Made by a program: the position numbers and the translations under genes | Assembly (NCBI GenBank): GCA_002375205.1 | Contig: DFLL01000017.1 | Span: forward strand, 474 to 59,015 | Source: Bacillales bacterium UBA3620 | Lineage (GTDB): Bacteria > Bacillota_I > Bacilli_A > RF39 > UBA660 | Length of the DNA stretch: 58,542 bases | Reading direction: 5' to 3' | The notes under the pieces: model-generated | Told to the model about the DNA's origin: nothing | Seen by the model: only the letters and a program-made list of their open reading frames with translations | Databases searched by the model: none | Shown: piece by piece, positions 669-8,146 of the stretch | How positions within the stretch are numbered: position 1 is the stretch's first letter | How the letters are laid out: each line of letters begins with the position of its first letter

Positions 669-2849
669 TTATATTTTTATCGGATCAAAATCTAATTCCA
701 CATTAATCTTATTATTTTTCTTAAACATCTCATCAATAAATTTAAGACAATTAATTAAATTATTATCTAAGCGATACTTTATAATTATTTGATAATGAAA
801 AATATTATCAATCTTAAATACACTTGCCATAGAAGGACCCAATATTATTGTTTCATTGCTTAAATTACTCTTTAAATAAGAACCAATTTTATTAGATTCC
901 TTAAAACCTAAATCATAATCTCTTGAAGATATTCCCACCACTACCATATAGTAATAAGGAGAATATTTAAGAAGTTTTCGCATTTTCATTTCTTCTTTAT
1001 AAAAAGATAAATAATCATGATTCTTAGAAAGAACAATACTATAATGTTCTGGATTATAAGTCTGAATAATAACTTCTCCTTTAGACTCACTTCTGCCAGC
1101 TCTTCCAGATACTTGACATAATAATTGAAAAGTATTTTCGCTTGCTCTAAAATCAGGAGTACTCAAAGTAGAATCTGCCGATACCACTCCCACTAAAGTA
1201 ACATCCGGAAAATCTAATCCCTTAGCAATCATCTGTGTACCAATTAATATATCATAATCGTGATTACCAAAAGCATCAATAATTCTCTCATGCTCCCCCT
1301 TTTTACTTGTAGTATCAATATCCATTCTAATTATCCTAGCATTATATAATTTATGTAGTTCTTCTTCTAACTTTTCAGTACCAAGACCATAATCTTTAAT
1401 ATTAGTACTACCACAATTACTACAACTATTCATAAGAGGCTTAGAAGTACCACAGTAATGACACTTTAAATTATTACTAGTTTTATGATAAGTATAAGAT
1501 ATATCACACTTAGGGCACTTCTCCGTGTATCCACAATCCTTACAAGTAATAATATTAGAGTATCCCCTTCTATTTAATAATAGTATTATTTGTTCTCCTT
1601 TATCTAACTTTTCCTTAATCTTATCTTTTAATATACTAGATAAGATAAAGTTCCCTTTCTTAACTTCATCTTTCATGTCAACAATTTGAACACTAGGTAA
1701 AGTACTACTACCAGGTCTTTTATTTAAAGTAAGAAGATTATATACCTTATTACCTGCTCTCGCAAAAGACTCTAAACTAGGCGTAGCACTACCAAGTACA
1801 ACTGGACACTTATGATAATTACTTCTCCATAGAGCAATTGTCTTTGCATTATATCTTGGATGACTTTCTTGCTTATATGATGAAGTGTGCTCTTCGTCAA
1901 TAATAATAACTCCAATATTCTTAAAAGGTACAAAGATAGCACTCCGAGTACCAATTACAATCTTTGATTTACCTTCGGTAATCTTTCGATATTCATCATA
2001 CCTTTCACTATCCGATAATCTCGAATGAAGTACTGATATAACATCTCCAAATCTCGATATAAATTTACCTACTATCTGAGGAGTCAAACTAATTTCAGGT
2101 ACTAGCATAATAGCTTCTTTACCATTTTTTATAGTCTCTTCTATTACACTCATATATACTTCTGTTTTACCACTACCAGTTACTCCATATAATAAAAATG
2201 TTTCACTCTTACCAAAAGAAGATATTATTTTATTCTTAACATTTTCTTGTTCACTAGTTAAAGTAACCCTCTTATAATTAGATAATCCTGTATAATTATA
2301 TCTTTTTTCTTCAATATTAATTATTTCTCCCAATCCATGTTTAATAATTGTATTAATAGTACTAGACATCTTACTAATTAATACGTCTCCTTCTTTTAGT
2401 TTACAAAGTAAATTAATCTGCCCTTCATATTTACAATTCTTAATATAATTATCAATCTCTTCAATACTCTTATTTCTTCTTAAATACCTATTATATTTAA
2501 TCTTAATCTCCGTACCAGCTTTAGCTTTTAAAGCTTTAGGAAGCATTACCTGATATGCACTAACTTTAGAACATAATAAACTATCACTCATATATTTACC
2601 AAGTTCTATCATTTCTTTATTAAGAACAGGTTCTTTATCAATAACCGAAGTTATATCTTTAATCTTATCTTTATCATAATTAGTATTATTCTTAATATTA
2701 ATAACAAATCCCTCTAAATTCATCTTACCAAAAGGAATACCAACTCTTATACCTATTTTAATATTACCTTCTAATTCTTTAGGTACTCTATACTCAAAAA
2801 CATTATCAACTGCTTTAGCACCAATCTCACAAAGTACATCTATATACAT
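669..2849 (-). CDS. priA: primosomal protein N' (replication restart helicase PriA)
   Basis: 726 aa. It has Walker A GVTGSGKTEVY, a DEEH box, paired CxxC zinc-binding motifs (CKDCGY..CPKCD, CHYCG..CSNCG) and a C-terminal helicase motif (GRAGR). Confidence 0.95.
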   Translation of the reverse strand: MYIDVLCEIGAKAVDNVFEYRVPKELEGNIKIGIRVGIPFGKMNLEGFVINIKNNTNYDKDKIKDITSVIDKEPVLNKEMIELGKYMSDSLLCSKVSAYQVMLPKALKAKAGTEIKIKYNRYLRRNKSIEEIDNYIKNCKYEGQINLLCKLKEGDVLISKMSSTINTIIKHGLGEIINIEEKRYNYTGLSNYKRVTLTSEQENVKNKIISSFGKSETFLLYGVTGSGKTEVYMSVIEETIKNGKEAIMLVPEISLTPQIVGKFISRFGDVISVLHSRLSDSERYDEYRKITEGKSKIVIGTRSAIFVPFKNIGVIIIDEEHTSSYKQESHPRYNAKTIALWRSNYHKCPVVLGSATPSLESFARAGNKVYNLLTLNKRPGSSTLPSVQIVDMKDEVKKGNFILSSILKDKIKEKLDKGEQIILLLNRRGYSNIITCKDCGYTEKCPKCDISYTYHKTSNNLKCHYCGTSKPLMNSCSNCGSTNIKDYGLGTEKLEEELHKLYNARIIRMDIDTTSKKGEHERIIDAFGNHDYDILIGTQMIAKGLDFPDVTLVGVVSADSTLSTPDFRASENTFQLLCQVSGRAGRSESKGEVIIQTYNPEHYSIVLSKNHDYLSFYKEEMKMRKLLKYSPYYYMVVVGISSRDYDLGFKESNKIGSYLKSNLSNETIILGPSMASVFKIDNIFHYQIIIKYRLDNNLINCLKFIDEMFKKNNKINVELDFDPIKI

Positions 2850-2861
2850 ACAATCGCCCCT

Positions 2862-3338
2862 TTATACTAAAATATTTTTTTCTTCTTCCATTATCTCTTT
2901 AATTCTATCAATATCTGTAAAGAATAAATCTAAGCCATTTTCTTTTAGTGATAACATATATTTAAAATTATCAACTATTTCTTTTTCAACAGAAGTAGAA
3001 ACTCTTATCTGTTTACCTTCAATCGTATGGATATTTTTTATATATTTTTTTAATGTAGGAAATGCATTCTGAATTAAAATAACTTCTTCAAGCCCTGAAA
3101 TATTTCTTATTAATATGGTTCTGCAATTACCATATTTATTTATTTTATGTTTAATTATTTTTTTATATTTATCTATTTTAGAACTAAGTGGTATAAACCA
3201 TAAAATATCTCTATCATTAATAGCTAAATAAGAAGGTCTTGACTTACCATTATCATGATTAATCATAATACTTTTCTCATTTATTTTTTCAAAAAATTCA
3301 TCTTTAATATGATATAAGTAACCAGTTTTAACTTCCAT
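2862..3338 (-). CDS. type III toxin-antitoxin system toxin, ToxN/AbiQ/CptN-like endoribonuclease
   Basis: About 158-165 aa. The pattern YLYHIKDEFFEKI...SRPSYLAIND..LWFIPLSSKIDKYKK fits the ToxN/AbiQ N-terminal signature (FY.I...Y...L......RPY.GI......YF.PLSSPK.KH). It sits directly downstream of tandem RNA-type repeats plus a terminator. Start chosen at M8 (ATG 3338, GGTGA 6 nt upstream). The ORF-track start at 3359 is the alternative. Confidence 0.7.
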   Translation of the reverse strand: MEVKTGYLYHIKDEFFEKINEKSIMINHDNGKSRPSYLAINDRDILWFIPLSSKIDKYKKIIKHKINKYGNCRTILIRNISGLEEVILIQNAFPTLKKYIKNIHTIEGKQIRVSTSVEKEIVDNFKYMLSLKENGLDLFFTDIDRIKEIMEEEKNILV

Positions 3339-3368
3339 TTCCTTATCACCAATCCTCATTTAATATTT

Positions 3369-3397
3369 ATTATATATAATTGAAAGAATAAAGTCAA
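3369..3397 (-). promoter_or_regulatory. sigma-A-type promoter immediately upstream of the toxin ORF (TTGACT-17 nt-TATAAT)
   Basis: On the minus strand, TTGACT (plus 3392-3397) is followed by a 17-nt spacer and TATAAT (plus 3369-3374). It lies between the terminator hairpin and the toxin start. Confidence 0.45.
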
Positions 3398-3440
3398 GAA
3401 ATATTTTACCATTTATAAACAAATGTTTGCTATGTTTTTG

Positions 3441-3474
3441 TAAAAAGAAAAAGTTCTTATAAAATAAGAACTTT
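3441..3474 (-). terminator. rho-independent terminator between repeat RNA and toxin gene
   Basis: 11-bp perfect stem (aaagttcttat / ataagaacttt, plus 3450-3460 and 3464-3474). On the minus strand it is followed by TTCTTTTT. Confidence 0.6.
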
Positions 3475-3480
3475 AAGGCA

Positions 3481-3582
3481 TTTACAACCAGGATCATTTA
3501 TTGCTCGCACCACCTGGAAGCGATTAACATTTCTCGACCGGGATCATTTATTGCTCGCACCACCCGAAAGCGATTAACATTT
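3481..3582 (-). ncRNA. two tandem 50-nt direct repeats, candidate type III antitoxin RNA (ToxI/CptI-like)
   Basis: 3481-3530 and 3531-3580 are 44/50 identical, with a shared core ggatcatttattgctcgcaccacc.g.aagcgattaacat. The region is locally far more GC-rich than the surrounding spacer. Each unit can form a CCAGG/CCUGG stem, and the second copy carries an A-U to G-C compensatory change. The position matches toxI relative to toxN. Confidence 0.6.
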
Positions 3583-3610
3583 AATGCCTTGTCTTAATAA
3601 AGACACCTAT

Positions 3611-3639
3611 AATATACACCATAATTTATTAAAAGTCAA
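3611..3639 (-). promoter_or_regulatory. sigma-A-type promoter for the repeat RNA (TTGACT-17 nt-TATATT)
   Basis: On the minus strand, TTGACT (plus 3634-3639) is followed by a 17-nt spacer and TATATT (plus 3611-3616). The predicted start is about 20 nt before the first repeat. Confidence 0.5.
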
Positions 3640-3641
3640 TA

Positions 3642-4019
3642 CTATATCCATTTACTGACTACTATATTTCTAACTCTTTCATCCTCAAAATTATCATCAT
3701 ATTTAATAATCTTTCTGATTAATTTATTTGTCTTTTTATAACTATTTAAATCTATATCATGAATATTAATAATACTCTTTAATCCCTTCCTATAATTATA
3801 ATCACTTACATACTTATACATACAACTATCAATTAACTTAATCTTATCTTCATCTTTATAACTAAAAACATAATCTTTATAAAAGTCAATTAATTCAAAA
3901 GATATAATATCATCATCTTCATAATTAATAATATCATCATAATACCTACAAAAACTAAGTACCTTCCTTACATTATCCATATCAATAGTATGTATCATAA
4001 TTATCTCCTTTATATTCAA
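3642..4019 (-). CDS. hypothetical protein (125 aa, acidic, no recognised motif)
   Basis: Long open frame in AT-rich DNA, co-oriented with its neighbours. No family recognised. Confidence 0.55.
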   Translation of the reverse strand: MNIKEIIMIHTIDMDNVRKVLSFCRYYDDIINYEDDDIISFELIDFYKDYVFSYKDEDKIKLIDSCMYKYVSDYNYRKGLKSIINIHDIDLNSYKKTNKLIRKIIKYDDNFEDERVRNIVVSKWI

Positions 4020-4036
4020 TTAAATTATAAATAAAA

Positions 4037-4057
4037 GAAAAAAGCCTGTAAAGGCTT
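4037..4057 (-). terminator. rho-independent terminator after the 575-aa gene
   Basis: The minus strand reads aaagcctttacaggcttttttc, a stem agcct/aggct followed by a T-run. Confidence 0.5.
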
Positions 4058-4066
4058 TCGACAAAA

Positions 4067-5794
4067 CTAGATATTTTTAACTCTAACTTTATATTCATTA
4101 ATATTTATTTCACTATCTAATTCTATTTCTAATTTAGATAATCTACTATAAGTATTTATAAGTAACCCAAATATCTCTTCATTACTTAAATTATAATCAA
4201 TATCAAGATTTAATATCTTATTCATTTCTTCTAAATAATATGAATAATAATTTCTATCTATATTAACTTTATTATTAATACTTTCGATAATACTATAAAT
4301 ACTATTTAAATATATACTAACAACTTTATTCTTACTTTCACTATATATACCATTAATATTATCATTAATACCAGTTACTATTTCACTAATTAAATCTTTT
4401 CTATTAACATAATGACTAAGTTTTATTAATGTATTATGTATTTCTTTTCTTAAATTTAACTCAAATTCATCTATAGTATTATATTTCAAACTCTTAATAC
4501 TACATTCACTAAATATATGAATAGAATCTAAAAACCCAAGTATATCAGCACTATTAGAATCTAAAATATTTATCAATTCTTTCTTTATTTCTTCTCTTTC
4601 TTTATCATCAATAAAAGGAAGAATAACTTCACTGATTAATTTAAAATCTTTATATAAATCACTATCCATTTCAGTAGTAGAAGTTCCTTCCAGTAAATGT
4701 CTTAAAGAATTAATAATATTAACCATATCTAAATATTTTTGATTATCTTCATAATTCTTTTTTAATTTATCTAAGATAATATCTAACTTAATAATTAAAT
4801 TGTTATATAATACTTCTCTATTAGATACTTCTAAGTTAATAATTTTATTTCTTATAGAAGTATTAATTAATTCTAATTTATTATTATAATCACTTACTAT
4901 ATCATTAACTATCTTATTAACATCTTCTTTACCATGATAATATGATAAATAATAATTAATATCTTCAAGTATCTTATCTACTTCACCAGTTTTACTTTCT
5001 AATAATTTAACTTCTTCTTTAGGCTTATCCACTACTCTTTTATTATCTACTTCTTGTTGTATTTCTTTTGCTAATATTTTTAAATAATCTTTTATTTTAT
5101 CAAATGGAATACCACCATATAATATTTTTTCTGATACAAGAAGTTTCTTTTTTCTATCATAAATCCATTTAATAGGTTCTACTTTTATCCAAACATAATC
5201 TCCTTTGTTATAATTTCCTTTAGGGCATAAAAAATCTTCCTTAACTAATGCTCTAACGTATCTCTCTTTATTATAGATATATTCTTCATCACCATTATAA
5301 GAGTTACCTGTTTTTATAAGTTTGGTCGAGTCTTTTATCTTATACAAACTATTTAATACGTCATCAATAGAATTAGAACAAAATTCTTGAGGGTAATAAC
5401 CATATAATAGGTAATAATTATAATCAGTAACCTGCTTATCAATAGGAAGTTCTAAGTCTTCAATGTCTCTAATAGAAAATACAGGTCTTATACCCAAAGA
5501 ACTACTATCTATATCTGACGGACTCAAAATATTGCCGCAATTATCGACAGAATTAAAAAAATATATATTATTACCTAATGAGTAAGTATAAGAAATAGGA
5601 TCATCAATGATATAACATTTATTATATTTAGTATTTATACAAGTATACGCCGTAGTATCAGCAGAACATCTACCTATTTTTTTAAATATACTTAATTTAT
5701 GTCTTCCCTCTATTTCCTTTTTTGTTAAAAATCTAAGATTAATAACTCTTTCTCTTTCTTCTTGTGGAGGCAATAAATAATTAGAATTAACCAT
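4067..5794 (-). CDS. hypothetical 575-aa protein with an N-terminal DUF6273-like module and a long helical C-terminal region
   Basis: The N-terminal third contains ...SSLGIRPVFSI... and ...YVWIKVEPIKWIYDRKKKLLVSEKILYGGIPFD. These resemble the GVRPA and W-x-VL repeats of DUF6273-type domains. No signal peptide. The C-terminal 340 aa or so are Asn/Ile/Lys-rich and helical. Confidence 0.55.
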   Translation of the reverse strand: MVNSNYLLPPQEERERVINLRFLTKKEIEGRHKLSIFKKIGRCSADTTAYTCINTKYNKCYIIDDPISYTYSLGNNIYFFNSVDNCGNILSPSDIDSSSLGIRPVFSIRDIEDLELPIDKQVTDYNYYLLYGYYPQEFCSNSIDDVLNSLYKIKDSTKLIKTGNSYNGDEEYIYNKERYVRALVKEDFLCPKGNYNKGDYVWIKVEPIKWIYDRKKKLLVSEKILYGGIPFDKIKDYLKILAKEIQQEVDNKRVVDKPKEEVKLLESKTGEVDKILEDINYYLSYYHGKEDVNKIVNDIVSDYNNKLELINTSIRNKIINLEVSNREVLYNNLIIKLDIILDKLKKNYEDNQKYLDMVNIINSLRHLLEGTSTTEMDSDLYKDFKLISEVILPFIDDKEREEIKKELINILDSNSADILGFLDSIHIFSECSIKSLKYNTIDEFELNLRKEIHNTLIKLSHYVNRKDLISEIVTGINDNINGIYSESKNKVVSIYLNSIYSIIESINNKVNIDRNYYSYYLEEMNKILNLDIDYNLSNEEIFGLLINTYSRLSKLEIELDSEININEYKVRVKNI

Positions 5795-5860: not shown

Positions 5861-6325
5861 TTAAGAATTAATTCTTCTATCTTTAGTATTTTCATTAGTC
5901 TGAAGCGATAATTTAAGAACATCGTCATAACTCACTAAATTATTATTATTCTCGATAATATAATCTTTCATTTTCTTAAATATTCTAATTAATGCCTTAC
6001 TCTGTATAGTAGCCTTTTCACCTTTTAATACAGTCATTAACATATATATACCTTGCTCGGTAAAAGCGTAAGGAAGTTTTCTTCTTCCACCCCAACTTGA
6101 TGTGGATTTTTTGAACATCAAGTTTTTAAATTCTTCTTCAGTTAACTGAAACATAAAATCACTATCAAATTTATTCATATTATTTTTTACTTGCTTGTTA
6201 AAATCTCTAGTCGCATATCCATATATTTCAGCAAGGTCGCTATCTATCATAACCTCTTTACCACGTATAATATATATTTTATTCCTAATACTTTTCTCAT
6301 CTATTAATGCTATATCATTTTTCAT
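5861..6325 (-). CDS. ORF6N domain-containing protein (KilA-N-related DNA-binding)
   Basis: IRNKIYIIRGKEVMIDSDLAEIYGYATRDFNKQVKNNMNKF..DFMFQLTEEEF..L......SSWGGRRKLPYAFTEQGIYMLMTVL is the typical ORF6N signature. Confidence 0.85.
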   Translation of the reverse strand: MKNDIALIDEKSIRNKIYIIRGKEVMIDSDLAEIYGYATRDFNKQVKNNMNKFDSDFMFQLTEEEFKNLMFKKSTSSWGGRRKLPYAFTEQGIYMLMTVLKGEKATIQSKALIRIFKKMKDYIIENNNNLVSYDDVLKLSLQTNENTKDRRINS

Positions 6326-6490
6326 ATTCTACTCCTTTCATATTTTATTTTTTTAAAAAGATTTTTGCGGTGAATTTTTTGCACCTCAAACATATCCTCT
6401 TTTTATTGTTGTAATCTCTATACTATCATAAATAGAAAATATTTCAAGGAGTTATGTAAAAAACATAAAAAAAATAACAACTAGATAAAT

Positions 6491-7270
6491 CTAATTATTA
6501 TTTAATAAATCTTCAAGTTCATCTTTTGTATAAATAAAATCCTTAATAGTATTAAAGTAGTGTTCTTGCTCTTTTTTGCAAAACTCTAATAAATCATTAT
6601 AATTACTATTTACTTGGGCACTATTTAATGCTTTATAGTATTCACCTTTTAATTCATCTTCAATTATAAATGGAAATATGTTATTTTTTATACATTCTTT
6701 AAACATAATAATACGACCAGTTCTACCATTACCATCTTGAAAAGGATGGATTTTTTCATATTTAGCATGAAATTCTACAATATCAAATAAATTATGGTTT
6801 TCTTTTAAATTATATTCATCAAGTAATTCTTTCATCTTATCTTCAACTTCTAAAGGAGAAGCTACTTTTATATTTGACACAGTATTGGCTCTTTTTTTAT
6901 AATCACCAATTGCGTAGCCATTTGCTTTATCTTCAAAAACACCAGATTTTAAATCATAATGATAACTTTTTATTAATTCTTCAGATAATTCTTCATTATA
7001 TGTTTTTAACATATTATTAAACATAATAAAATGCCCATTAGCTTCTTCTACATCTTTTGATCTTACTGCCATTCCATCATTAATAATTGTTCCTGTTTCA
7101 AAAAGTGATGCAGTCTGATATTCTGTTAGGGTACTACCTTCTATTCTATTTGAATTATATGTTAATTTTCTTTGCGTATATCCATAAACACCACTTCGAT
7201 CATTTTTATCATATTCTATTTTAAGTCTATTAATTAAATCACCAATGATTTTTTTATTATCATAATTCAT
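6491..7270 (-). CDS. Fic family protein (class II, N-terminal inhibitory helix)
   Basis: Fic active-site motif HPFQDGNGRTGR. N-terminal SNRIEG matches the (S/T)xxxE(G/N) auto-inhibition motif. Strong RBS (AGGAGGG). Confidence 0.9.
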   Translation of the reverse strand: MNYDNKKIIGDLINRLKIEYDKNDRSGVYGYTQRKLTYNSNRIEGSTLTEYQTASLFETGTIINDGMAVRSKDVEEANGHFIMFNNMLKTYNEELSEELIKSYHYDLKSGVFEDKANGYAIGDYKKRANTVSNIKVASPLEVEDKMKELLDEYNLKENHNLFDIVEFHAKYEKIHPFQDGNGRTGRIIMFKECIKNNIFPFIIEDELKGEYYKALNSAQVNSNYNDLLEFCKKEQEHYFNTIKDFIYTKDELEDLLNNN

Positions 7271-7708: not shown

Positions 7709-8146
7709 TTATTTTACTATGGAATACTCTTTTTGTAAAGAATTTAATTTCGATAACCAGAAATAATCCTTATTCTCAAAATCACATACAAATAAATTAG
7801 TATTATAACTTTTAATATCATCAAAAAAGATACTATAATTACTATCAGTTTCTATCTTAATATTATAATTATTAATTCTAAGAGTAGTCTTCTCATCAGT
7901 ATTAAGTATATGAATATTATCTCTTCTTTTATATCCATATTTTAATTTGTACTCATAATAAATATATTCATTAAGCATTATTTTATTAAAAGGAAGTGCT
8001 ACTTCTTCCATTACTCTAAAAGTTTTAATATTATCATAATCCCTAGAATAATATATTTCTTCAAATATCTTATACATCTTAAAAGGATTATTCTTATACA
8101 TATACTTAAAATATTTATTAACATTAAAAATGTAGTATGTTCTCAT
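7709..8146 (-). CDS. hypothetical protein (145 aa)
   Basis: Open frame only. No motif recognised. Confidence 0.5.

Follow-up and report, generated by a model that had tools for sequence, protein, structure and literature searches.

A probable chromosomal CptIN toxin-antitoxin system with two non-identical 50-nt antitoxin units

What is encoded by a pair of 50-nt tandem repeats placed in front of a short open reading frame in a bacterial chromosome? The locus that raises this question lies on the minus strand of a 58,542-nt stretch of DNA from Bacillales bacterium UBA3620, hereafter the window. An earlier note had described it as a type III toxin-antitoxin locus, a protein toxin paired with a repeat-RNA antitoxin, and had suggested that its "unusual" 2 x 50-nt array may represent a new class of antitoxin RNA. 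The type III assignment is borne out by a canonical promoter-repeats-terminator-toxin layout. From sequence comparisons, we put at about 0.88 the probability that it is a CptIN-family type III toxin-antitoxin system, chromosomal and intact. The array itself turns out to be an ordinary CptI array of a large subfamily, in which the two units differ systematically from each other.

Results

Layout of the locus

In minus-strand order, the locus opens with a promoter and a leader hairpin; two tandem units of 50 nt follow, and after them the pentamer AAAUG, a hairpin terminator and the toxin ORF. The features are as follows (helices S1 and S2 and loop L2 are described below):

3611 to 3639, minus strand: antitoxin-toxin promoter, with -35 TTGACT at 3639-3634, a 17-nt spacer and -10 TATATT at 3616-3611 (consensus scan, 10/12)
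3590 to 3605, minus strand: 5' leader hairpin UGUCUU-UAUU-AAGACA at the transcript start (in the MFE fold of the array transcript)
3533 to 3582, minus strand: CptI antitoxin unit 1, 50 nt (TRF; covariance-model match of 74.9 bits; S1/S2 covariation)
3573-3570 with 3558-3555, minus strand: unit 1 S1, UCGC/GCGA (covariation)
3567-3563 with 3542-3538, minus strand: unit 1 S2, UCGGG/CCCGG (covariation)
3554-3543, minus strand: unit 1 A-rich L2
3483 to 3532, minus strand: CptI antitoxin unit 2, 50 nt (TRF; covariance-model match of 75.3 bits; S1/S2 covariation)
3523-3520 with 3508-3505, minus strand: unit 2 S1 (covariation)
3517-3513 with 3492-3488, minus strand: unit 2 S2, CCAGG/CCUGG (covariation)
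3504-3493, minus strand: unit 2 L2
3479 to 3483, minus strand: vestigial start of a third unit, AAAUG, the putative 3' processing site of unit 2 (conservation and analogy with CptI_Er, the CptI RNA of E. rectale)
3442 to 3474, minus strand: intrinsic terminator, an 11-bp stem AAAGUUCUUAU/AUAAGAACUUU with loop UUU, then UUCUUUUU (read and folded)
3369 to 3397, minus strand: second promoter-like site TTGACT-17-TATAAT in the terminator-toxin gap, of uncertain status (scan, 11/12)
2862 to 3338, minus strand: predicted cptN toxin gene, which encodes 158 aa when read from the ATG at 3338, with the stop at 2864-2862 included (NCBIfam and PDB matches)

The toxin is a CptN homologue

The longest ORF downstream of the repeats, 3359-2862, encodes 165 aa, and 158 aa result if translation starts at 3338, in agreement with the 158-165 aa given earlier. 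Relatives start at the equivalent of this second ATG; because most related clusters begin MKVQTGYLYHIK, the true toxin start is probably the ATG at 3338.

Which toxin does this frame encode? Its only significant NCBIfam match was NF047359 (type III toxin-antitoxin system CptIN family toxin, equivalog), which scored 151 bits (cut-off 90; E 2e-44) over profile positions 1-150 of 150. The profile search that had been suggested as a check of the ORF thus returned a type III toxin family, CptIN. Residues 13-153 also matched the CptN of PDB entry 4RMO_A (E 3e-19), and the two proteins have the motifs RP.Y, W.IPLSS.IDKYKKI and LIQ.FP in common. Pfam gave nothing at E<=1 except a chance match to DUF5640, and in particular no ToxN/AbiQ PF13958, while PADLOC gave no model at E<=1. 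Of the ToxN/AbiQ/CptN signature that had been read in the N-terminal half, the CptN part therefore stands (NF047359, 4RMO) and the ToxN/AbiQ part falls. Judged by homology, the toxin is CptN.

The window toxin retains all invariant columns of 24 family members. An AlphaFold2 model built on this shallow and uniform 24-sequence alignment (about 70% identity) was unusable, with a mean pLDDT of 51. Some of the residues with which the E. rectale protein (CptN_Er) contacts the scissile adenine are missing here: an invariant His stands opposite Tyr104, Asp81 and Ser85 are without clear counterpart, and SSR has become SSK. Because these residues are replaced, the details of RNA recognition may differ from those of CptN_Er, and such replacement is as expected if toxin and RNA co-evolve.

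The locus belongs to a very large gut-Bacilli subfamily

At E<=1e-5, 2289 protein clusters were related to the toxin, most of them 155-160 aa long, about 70% identical and with the start quoted above; none of the clusters that were looked up carries a name, and truncated toxins of 58-75 aa occur among them. A scan of one genome per species yielded 269 relatives, from which 80 loci were kept, almost all in gut MAGs labelled Bacilli, Tenericutes or Clostridia. The 73 loci with sufficient upstream DNA were searched with a profile of the window's unit, and two tandem 50-nt units (rarely 49 or 51) were found upstream of the toxin in every one. By these matches, the locus belongs to a very large gut-Bacilli CptIN subfamily.

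These loci also bear on the flanks of the array. A TTGACT-17-TATATT promoter had been proposed and is present at 3639-3611. Our promoter call is made because its position is conserved across loci, not for its match score as such: in about 69 of the 73 loci, a TTGAC[AT]-17-TATA[TC]T stops 25-34 nt short of unit 1 on its upstream side. The small 5' hairpin (gtctt/aagac) described earlier has one extra pair and spans 3605-3590. A hairpin of other sequence occupies the same place in 48 of 57 distinct leaders, and the leaders of related loci have a mean MFE of -4.9 kcal/mol, compared with -1.3 for shuffles. An 8-nt complementarity (3590-3583 with 3482-3475), which had been thought to bracket the array, does exist in the window; it is not conserved and is confined to the window's lineage. 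As a family feature it was rejected, the best flank stem averaging 4.3 nt against 3.9 nt in shuffles.

On the other side of the array, the predicted 11-bp-stem terminator with its T-run indeed lies between the repeats and the toxin, at 3474-3442. Its hairpin is AT-rich (3474-3450) and is followed by TTCTTTTT; a simple terminator scan missed it solely because the stem has fewer than three G-C pairs. A hairpin with a T-tail was found at the equivalent place in 54 of 64 distinct downstream flanks. A 45-aa ORF at 3360-3497, which overlaps unit 2 and the terminator, was set aside as a chance ORF.

The repeat unit is a pseudoknot supported by covariation

The window's two units lie head-to-tail at 3582-3533 and 3532-3483 and are identical at 44 of 50 positions, as had been claimed (TRF: period 50, 93% match, score 171); the array amounts to 2.1 copies of 50 nt. 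Their core pattern occurs twice in the window, compared with 0.01 occurrences expected by chance, and a covariance model of the 50-nt unit matched these two units only, each at 75 bits (E ~5e-17). Rfam gave no match at E<=10 on either strand of region 2500-4500. The units differ at unit positions 16, 18, 43, 47, 49 and 50. Three of these six differences do fall inside the CCAGG/CCUGG versus UCGGG/CCCGG helix; the copy numbering of the earlier note was reversed, the UCGGG/CCCGG copy being the 5' one.

What fold do the units adopt? We aligned 88 distinct 50-nt units of related loci, without gaps, and found two crossing helices, S1 (10-13/25-28) and S2 (16-20/41-45). The S1 pair 10:28 is U-A in 59 units, C-G in 29 and unpaired in none, the remaining three S1 pairs being invariant, and S2 shows double (compensatory) changes at all five pairs, so that six of the nine helix pairs carry double changes. 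Overall, 98% of cells are paired, compared with 27-53% after the 3' partner strand is slid by 1-3 columns. RNAalifold, which is blind to pseudoknots, recovers S2 unaided. Extensions of S1 to 8:30 and 9:29 (pairing in only 48% and 6% of cells) and of S2 to 15:46 (only 10%) were rejected. In L2, A32, A34 and A35 show no variation, and U33, A36 and U37 almost none. In the window, both helices are perfect in both units.

Because S1 and S2 cross and both are supported by covariation, the unit is a pseudoknot of the H type, and its L2 is long and A-rich. Its parts, by unit position, are:

1-9: 5' tail, AAAUGUUAA
10-13: S1 5' strand, UCGC
14-15: L1, 2 nt
16-20: S2 5' strand, 5 nt
21-24: S2-S1' linker, UGGU, 4 nt
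25-28: S1 3' strand, GCGA
29-40: L2, 12 nt, A-rich GCAAUAAAUGAU
41-45: S2 3' strand, 5 nt
46-50: 3' tail, about 5-6 nt

The 5-bp helix that had been held to be under selection is S2. It is real and indeed selected: the repeats are present at related loci, and all five of its pairs covary. The 20-nt loop drawn within that helix does not survive: it holds the S1 3' strand, and its A-rich part corresponds to the CptI L2 A-minor strand.

The two units are position-specific

The two units differ systematically across the subfamily. Of 54 distinct arrays, 53 have a different S2 in their two units and 22 a different S1, and complementarity is retained within each unit despite these differences. Identity between the units averages 40.6/50 (range 70-96%); unit 1 ends in G and unit 2 in A (position 50); and 102 of 108 units have as their nearest neighbour the same-position unit of another locus. 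Thus, the units are systematically non-identical and position-specific, a mildly new trait. A 2025 survey describes the toxIN and cptIN repeats known to date as nearly identical (PMC12283969), so this subfamily extends non-identical repeats to cptIN, whose arrays can comprise two diverged, position-specific units.

Cleavage probably occurs at the unit junctions

Where is the precursor cut? In 67 of the 73 related loci, unit 2 is followed by AAATG, and no more of a third unit is kept. The pentamer stands at all three unit boundaries, its positions 1 and 3-5 invariant; position 2 does not vary in unit 2, and in unit 1 it is C at 13 of the 73 loci. Processing of CptI_Er takes place at the unit junction, on the 3' side of A45 (PMC4627078), and in the covariance-model alignment its cut GA|AAG falls between unit positions 2 and 3. 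Because AAAUG is conserved at all boundaries, the vestigial third included, we infer junction cleavage. By analogy with CptI_Er, the cut is thus more likely to lie in the junction AAAUG than in the loop. Junction cleavage would yield two whole pseudoknots, of 50 and 49 nt. The AAAU of the loop, previously proposed as the cut site, is an unlikely one: a cut there in L2 would yield one whole unit only and destroy the A-rich strand.

The array falls within the range of CptI RNAs

Could the locus represent a new type III family or antitoxin RNA class after all, its RNA no more than a hairpin whose 20-nt loop is cut in AAAU? Several observations suit such a proposal: the searches of Pfam, PADLOC and Rfam gave no match, the loop does contain AAAU, the toxin has low identity to CptN_Er and differs in its adenine-binding residues, and the unit is 2 nt longer than in the 33 cptIN loci surveyed in 2012, where repeats span 40-48 nt (mean 44.8) in 1.9-3.4 copies (mean 2.4; PMC3401426). 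We consider it very unlikely. The toxin exceeds the NCBIfam CptIN cut-off by 61 bits, the supposed loop includes the 3' half of a helix that crosses S2 and covaries, and the layout is that of CptI_Er part for part. A cut in the loop would free one complete unit from a 2.1-copy array and would leave the third AAAUG unexplained. As for length, distant CptN relatives used for comparison, which are on plasmids, have units with the same layout, and the lengths beside that of the E. rectale type are:

E. rectale-type locus: 45 nt
Megamonas plasmid: 47 nt
Planococcus plasmid: 49 nt
C. perfringens plasmid: alternating 47 and 50 nt

The window's unit therefore lies within the 45-50 nt of other CptN loci. 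The covariance model of the 50-nt unit also aligns distant CptI arrays, its best non-self matches being to Megamonas (16.8 and 10.8 bits), Planococcus (12.4) and the E. rectale-type locus (11.5); these four matches are full length, in register and on CptI arrays, and individually weak (E 0.04-1.3). Because relatives' units span 45-50 nt, about two copies are normal and the CptI layout is matched, the array does not represent a new class of RNA: its unit stands at the top of a continuous range of lengths, and its copy number is the usual one. The array is accordingly not unusual in the sense first proposed.

A promoter-like site and a variable genomic setting

A second promoter-like site lies at 3397-3369, downstream of the terminator. 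It departs from the single-promoter rule of type III systems, for which reviews describe one promoter (PMC5086642). It was found in 16 of 73 loci, the window's included; these are 16 of the 21 loci with a terminator-toxin gap of more than 90 nt, as against none of the 52 with a gap of 90 nt or less, and the sequence that flanks it varies between lineages. At a threshold of at least 9/12, the promoter scan returned 14 sites where 13.3 were expected, chance matches being common in a genome of 26% G+C, and the site could be one of them. A promoter-like site just upstream of the toxin in some loci is thus a mildly new point of uncertain standing.

The host is a spore-forming Firmicute, and the chromosomal markers SpoIIIAH, SirA and PriA are present. 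The cassette sits within a short variable stretch between sirA and priA, which also holds two further ORFs, an ORF6N/Rha-like gene and a Fic gene; the latter two match the PADLOC defence candidates PDC-S05 and PDC-S04. The window's neighbours are common to one other locus only (toxin 97% identical), and therefore the cassette moves as a unit. A tblastn search of the toxin against phage records gave no match. One PHROG without assigned function matches the toxin. To our knowledge, no CptIN system has so far been shown to protect against phage. The locus adjoins two candidate phage-defence genes, and loci from such islands are reasonable candidates for a test of phage protection.

That the repeats act in cis on cptN-priA as a leader (attenuator or riboregulator), or that the locus is a decayed and inactive remnant, would suit the 12 nt that separate the toxin stop from the priA start with no terminator between, the promoter-like site in front of the toxin and the 58-75-aa truncated toxins of related clusters, and is nonetheless extremely unlikely, since priA lies downstream of the toxin in only 1 of 80 related loci while repeats always accompany the toxin, the window toxin is full length with all family-invariant residues kept, S1 and S2 are perfect in both units, and the repeats of the solved relative act in trans as processed units (PMC4627078).

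Discussion

A proposed mechanism and its implications

How might this CptIN system work? In the mechanism that we infer, which extends to A-minor docking, the exact cut site, stoichiometry, toxicity and neutralisation, and biological role, the promoter at 3639-3611 would drive a short RNA made of the 5' hairpin leader, two CptI units and the terminator. Occasional read-through of the terminator would express the CptN endoribonuclease, and the promoter-like site at 3397-3369 may add to toxin expression in the window's lineage. Each unit would fold into its H-type pseudoknot, with L2 predicted to occupy the S1 minor groove, as it does in E. rectale CptI. By the same analogy, CptN would cut the precursor inside AAAUG at the three unit boundaries, and the two released units would stay toxin-bound and close an inactive ring, which is 2:2 in the solved relative. 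If transcription fell or the RNA were degraded, as upon phage infection or loss of the locus, free CptN would cleave cellular or phage RNA at A-rich sites and growth would stop.

A bolder proposal is that the subfamily uses an obligately heterotypic antitoxin and that, in some lineages including the window's, the toxin also has its own promoter. We hold it tentatively and think it rather doubtful. If the heterotypic units were real in this sense, they could make for an asymmetric 2:2 complex, or their difference could be kept against mispairing between units; a separate toxin promoter past the terminator would alter the control of the antitoxin:toxin ratio.

The locus itself is unremarkable within a known family, and the models that NCBI now uses would already give its toxin a name. 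The gain is modest: a clean CptI alignment for one subfamily with thousands of members, in a family whose RNAs a 2012 report called unalignable (PMC3401426), and covariation that supports the same pseudoknot as the single crystal structure.

Comparison with known type III systems

With ToxIN of P. atrosepticum and B. thuringiensis, the locus would share the operon logic, in which a repeat RNA is processed by and then inhibits the toxin, as well as a pseudoknotted antitoxin and A-rich cut sites. It differs in its toxin, which has no match to the ToxN profile PF13958; ToxI itself has units of 34-36 nt in 2.9-5.5 copies, which form triplex pseudoknots and 3:3 triangular complexes (PMC4627078, PMC5086642). 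The tenpIN systems described in 2025 (PMC12283969) likewise have about two longer (39-57 nt), non-identical repeats with a conserved A-stretch in the second half of the unit, and differ in toxin family, the window's only significant NCBIfam match being CptIN.

The closest comparison is CptIN of E. rectale (PDB 4RMO; PMC4627078), from which the window's toxin and RNA differ in several respects. The toxins are only about 35% identical. The window's unit measures 50 nt instead of 45, with longer tails, an S2-S1' linker of 4 nt instead of 2-3, an L2 of 12 nt instead of 9-10 and an S1 of 4 bp instead of 5. The E. rectale copies are 100% identical, whereas those of the subfamily are 70-96% identical, and the window's lineage has a promoter-like site between terminator and toxin.

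The likenesses run through the whole locus. Both toxins are homologous (E 3e-19), both loci are chromosomal and in a gut Firmicute, and both consist of a promoter, about two tandem repeats, a terminator and the toxin. E. rectale CptI is a 45-nt H-type pseudoknot in which L1 is G13 and the A-rich L2 runs from A27 to G35, with an A-minor twist and a kink at U30, in a complex that forms a 2:2 ring (PMC4627078). The CptI_Er unit AAGUUUACCACUGACCGAUAUGUGGUAUAUAAAUGGUCGGGUUGA, which we recovered from gut metagenome contigs, fits the published G13, U30, G35, G44 and A45. Set against it, the 50-nt unit has the same element order (tail-S1-L1-S2-S1'-A-rich L2-S2'-tail), two short stems, a short L1 and single-stranded tails, the same AUAAAUG in L2 with its U flanked by A's, and an A-rich junction, GA|AAG in E. 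rectale and G|AAAUG here. Finally, A32/U33 of the 50-nt unit align with A29/U30 of CptI_Er, whose mutation abolishes antitoxicity in E. rectale (PMC4627078).

Transcription of the toxin gene and its neighbours

What could drive the toxin gene? In the window, a promoter-like site lies downstream of the antitoxin RNA, and cptN is closely followed by an essential gene:

3369-3397, minus strand: near-consensus promoter-like site (TTGACT-17-TATAAT), downstream of the antitoxin terminator and upstream of cptN
2849-2864, minus strand: cptN stop to priA start, 12 nt, with cptN upstream of priA
669-2849, minus strand: priA, essential, directly 3' of cptN

When we compared the 73 loci carrying CptN relatives with enough upstream DNA, a promoter-like site was found in the terminator-toxin gap of 16, among them L003, L004 and the L026-L064 group. 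Gaps exceeding 90 nt occurred in 21 loci, 5 of which lacked the site, and none of the shorter gaps (90 nt or less) contained one. The sequence of these sites varies from lineage to lineage. If the site at 3369-3397 is active, toxin expression would be independent of terminator read-through.

Because only 12 nt separate the cptN stop from the priA start in the window, and this interval holds an AGGGG ribosome-binding site but no terminator, priA may be co-transcribed with cptN. Outside the window, this arrangement was common only to L001, whose toxin is 97% identical.

On its other side, the CptIN locus faces candidate defence genes:

5861-7270, minus strand: ORF6N/Rha-like gene and Fic-domain gene, PADLOC matches, 2.5 kb upstream of the CptIN locus
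7709-8146: sirA, bordering the stretch opposite priA

The ORF6N/Rha-like gene matches PDC-S05 (E 5e-58) and the Fic-domain gene PDC-S04 (E 1e-91), and two unknown ORFs, of 125 and 575 aa, separate the pair from the CptIN locus. Taken together, these genes give the sirA-priA interval the look of a small island, either variable or devoted to defence.

Variation among antitoxin units and arrays

At the start of unit 1, the 5' repeat, ACAUG replaces the boundary motif AAAUG in 13/73 loci (L025, L026, L028, L032, L037, L046, L053-L055, L058, L059, L068 and L076). Since ACAUG never starts unit 2 in the 73 loci, cleavage may be dispensable at the 5' boundary of this unit, or C at +2 may be tolerated there.

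Extra or divergent arrays were also found. L062 (2500-2700, locus coordinates) and L032 (2590-2700) carry a second CptI-like array of 4 and 2 units, respectively, ~140 nt upstream of the regular one, with its own terminator and no toxin gene. Its units are variants with a longer S1 helix (CUCGC/GCGAG) and the linker GGCUA; the array could represent an orphan antitoxin or what remains of a second locus. In the antitoxin array that precedes the gene for a distant CptN relative on C. perfringens plasmid pCP346-91 (L163, 937-1137), quite different 47-nt and 50-nt units alternate twice with a period of 97, an extreme case of non-identical repeats.

Comparison with known CptIN systems

The linker between pseudoknot helix S2 and the 3' strand of S1 (S1') is nearly invariant:

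3562-3559 (unit 1) and 3512-3509 (unit 2), minus strand: UGGU, unit positions 21-24

U21 and G22 are invariant, and G23 and U24 exceed 90%. UGGU has no pairing partner in the pseudoknot model and may make tertiary or protein contacts; the linker of the E. rectale antitoxin CptI_Er is shorter (2-3 nt).

The window toxin matches phrog_33519, a PHROG of unknown function (E 2.5e-19). Plasmids of Megamonas, Planococcus, C. perfringens and Virgibacillus (records H1-H5) encode distant relatives of CptN with 28-33% identity, each of them annotated as a hypothetical protein. A 2012 survey found cptIN on chromosomes only (PMC3401426). Many members of the P0093 toxin cluster (90% identity) have only 58-75 aa. 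They come either from truncated toxin genes or from genes cut off at a contig end, and are reminiscent of the short cptN genes described in 2012.
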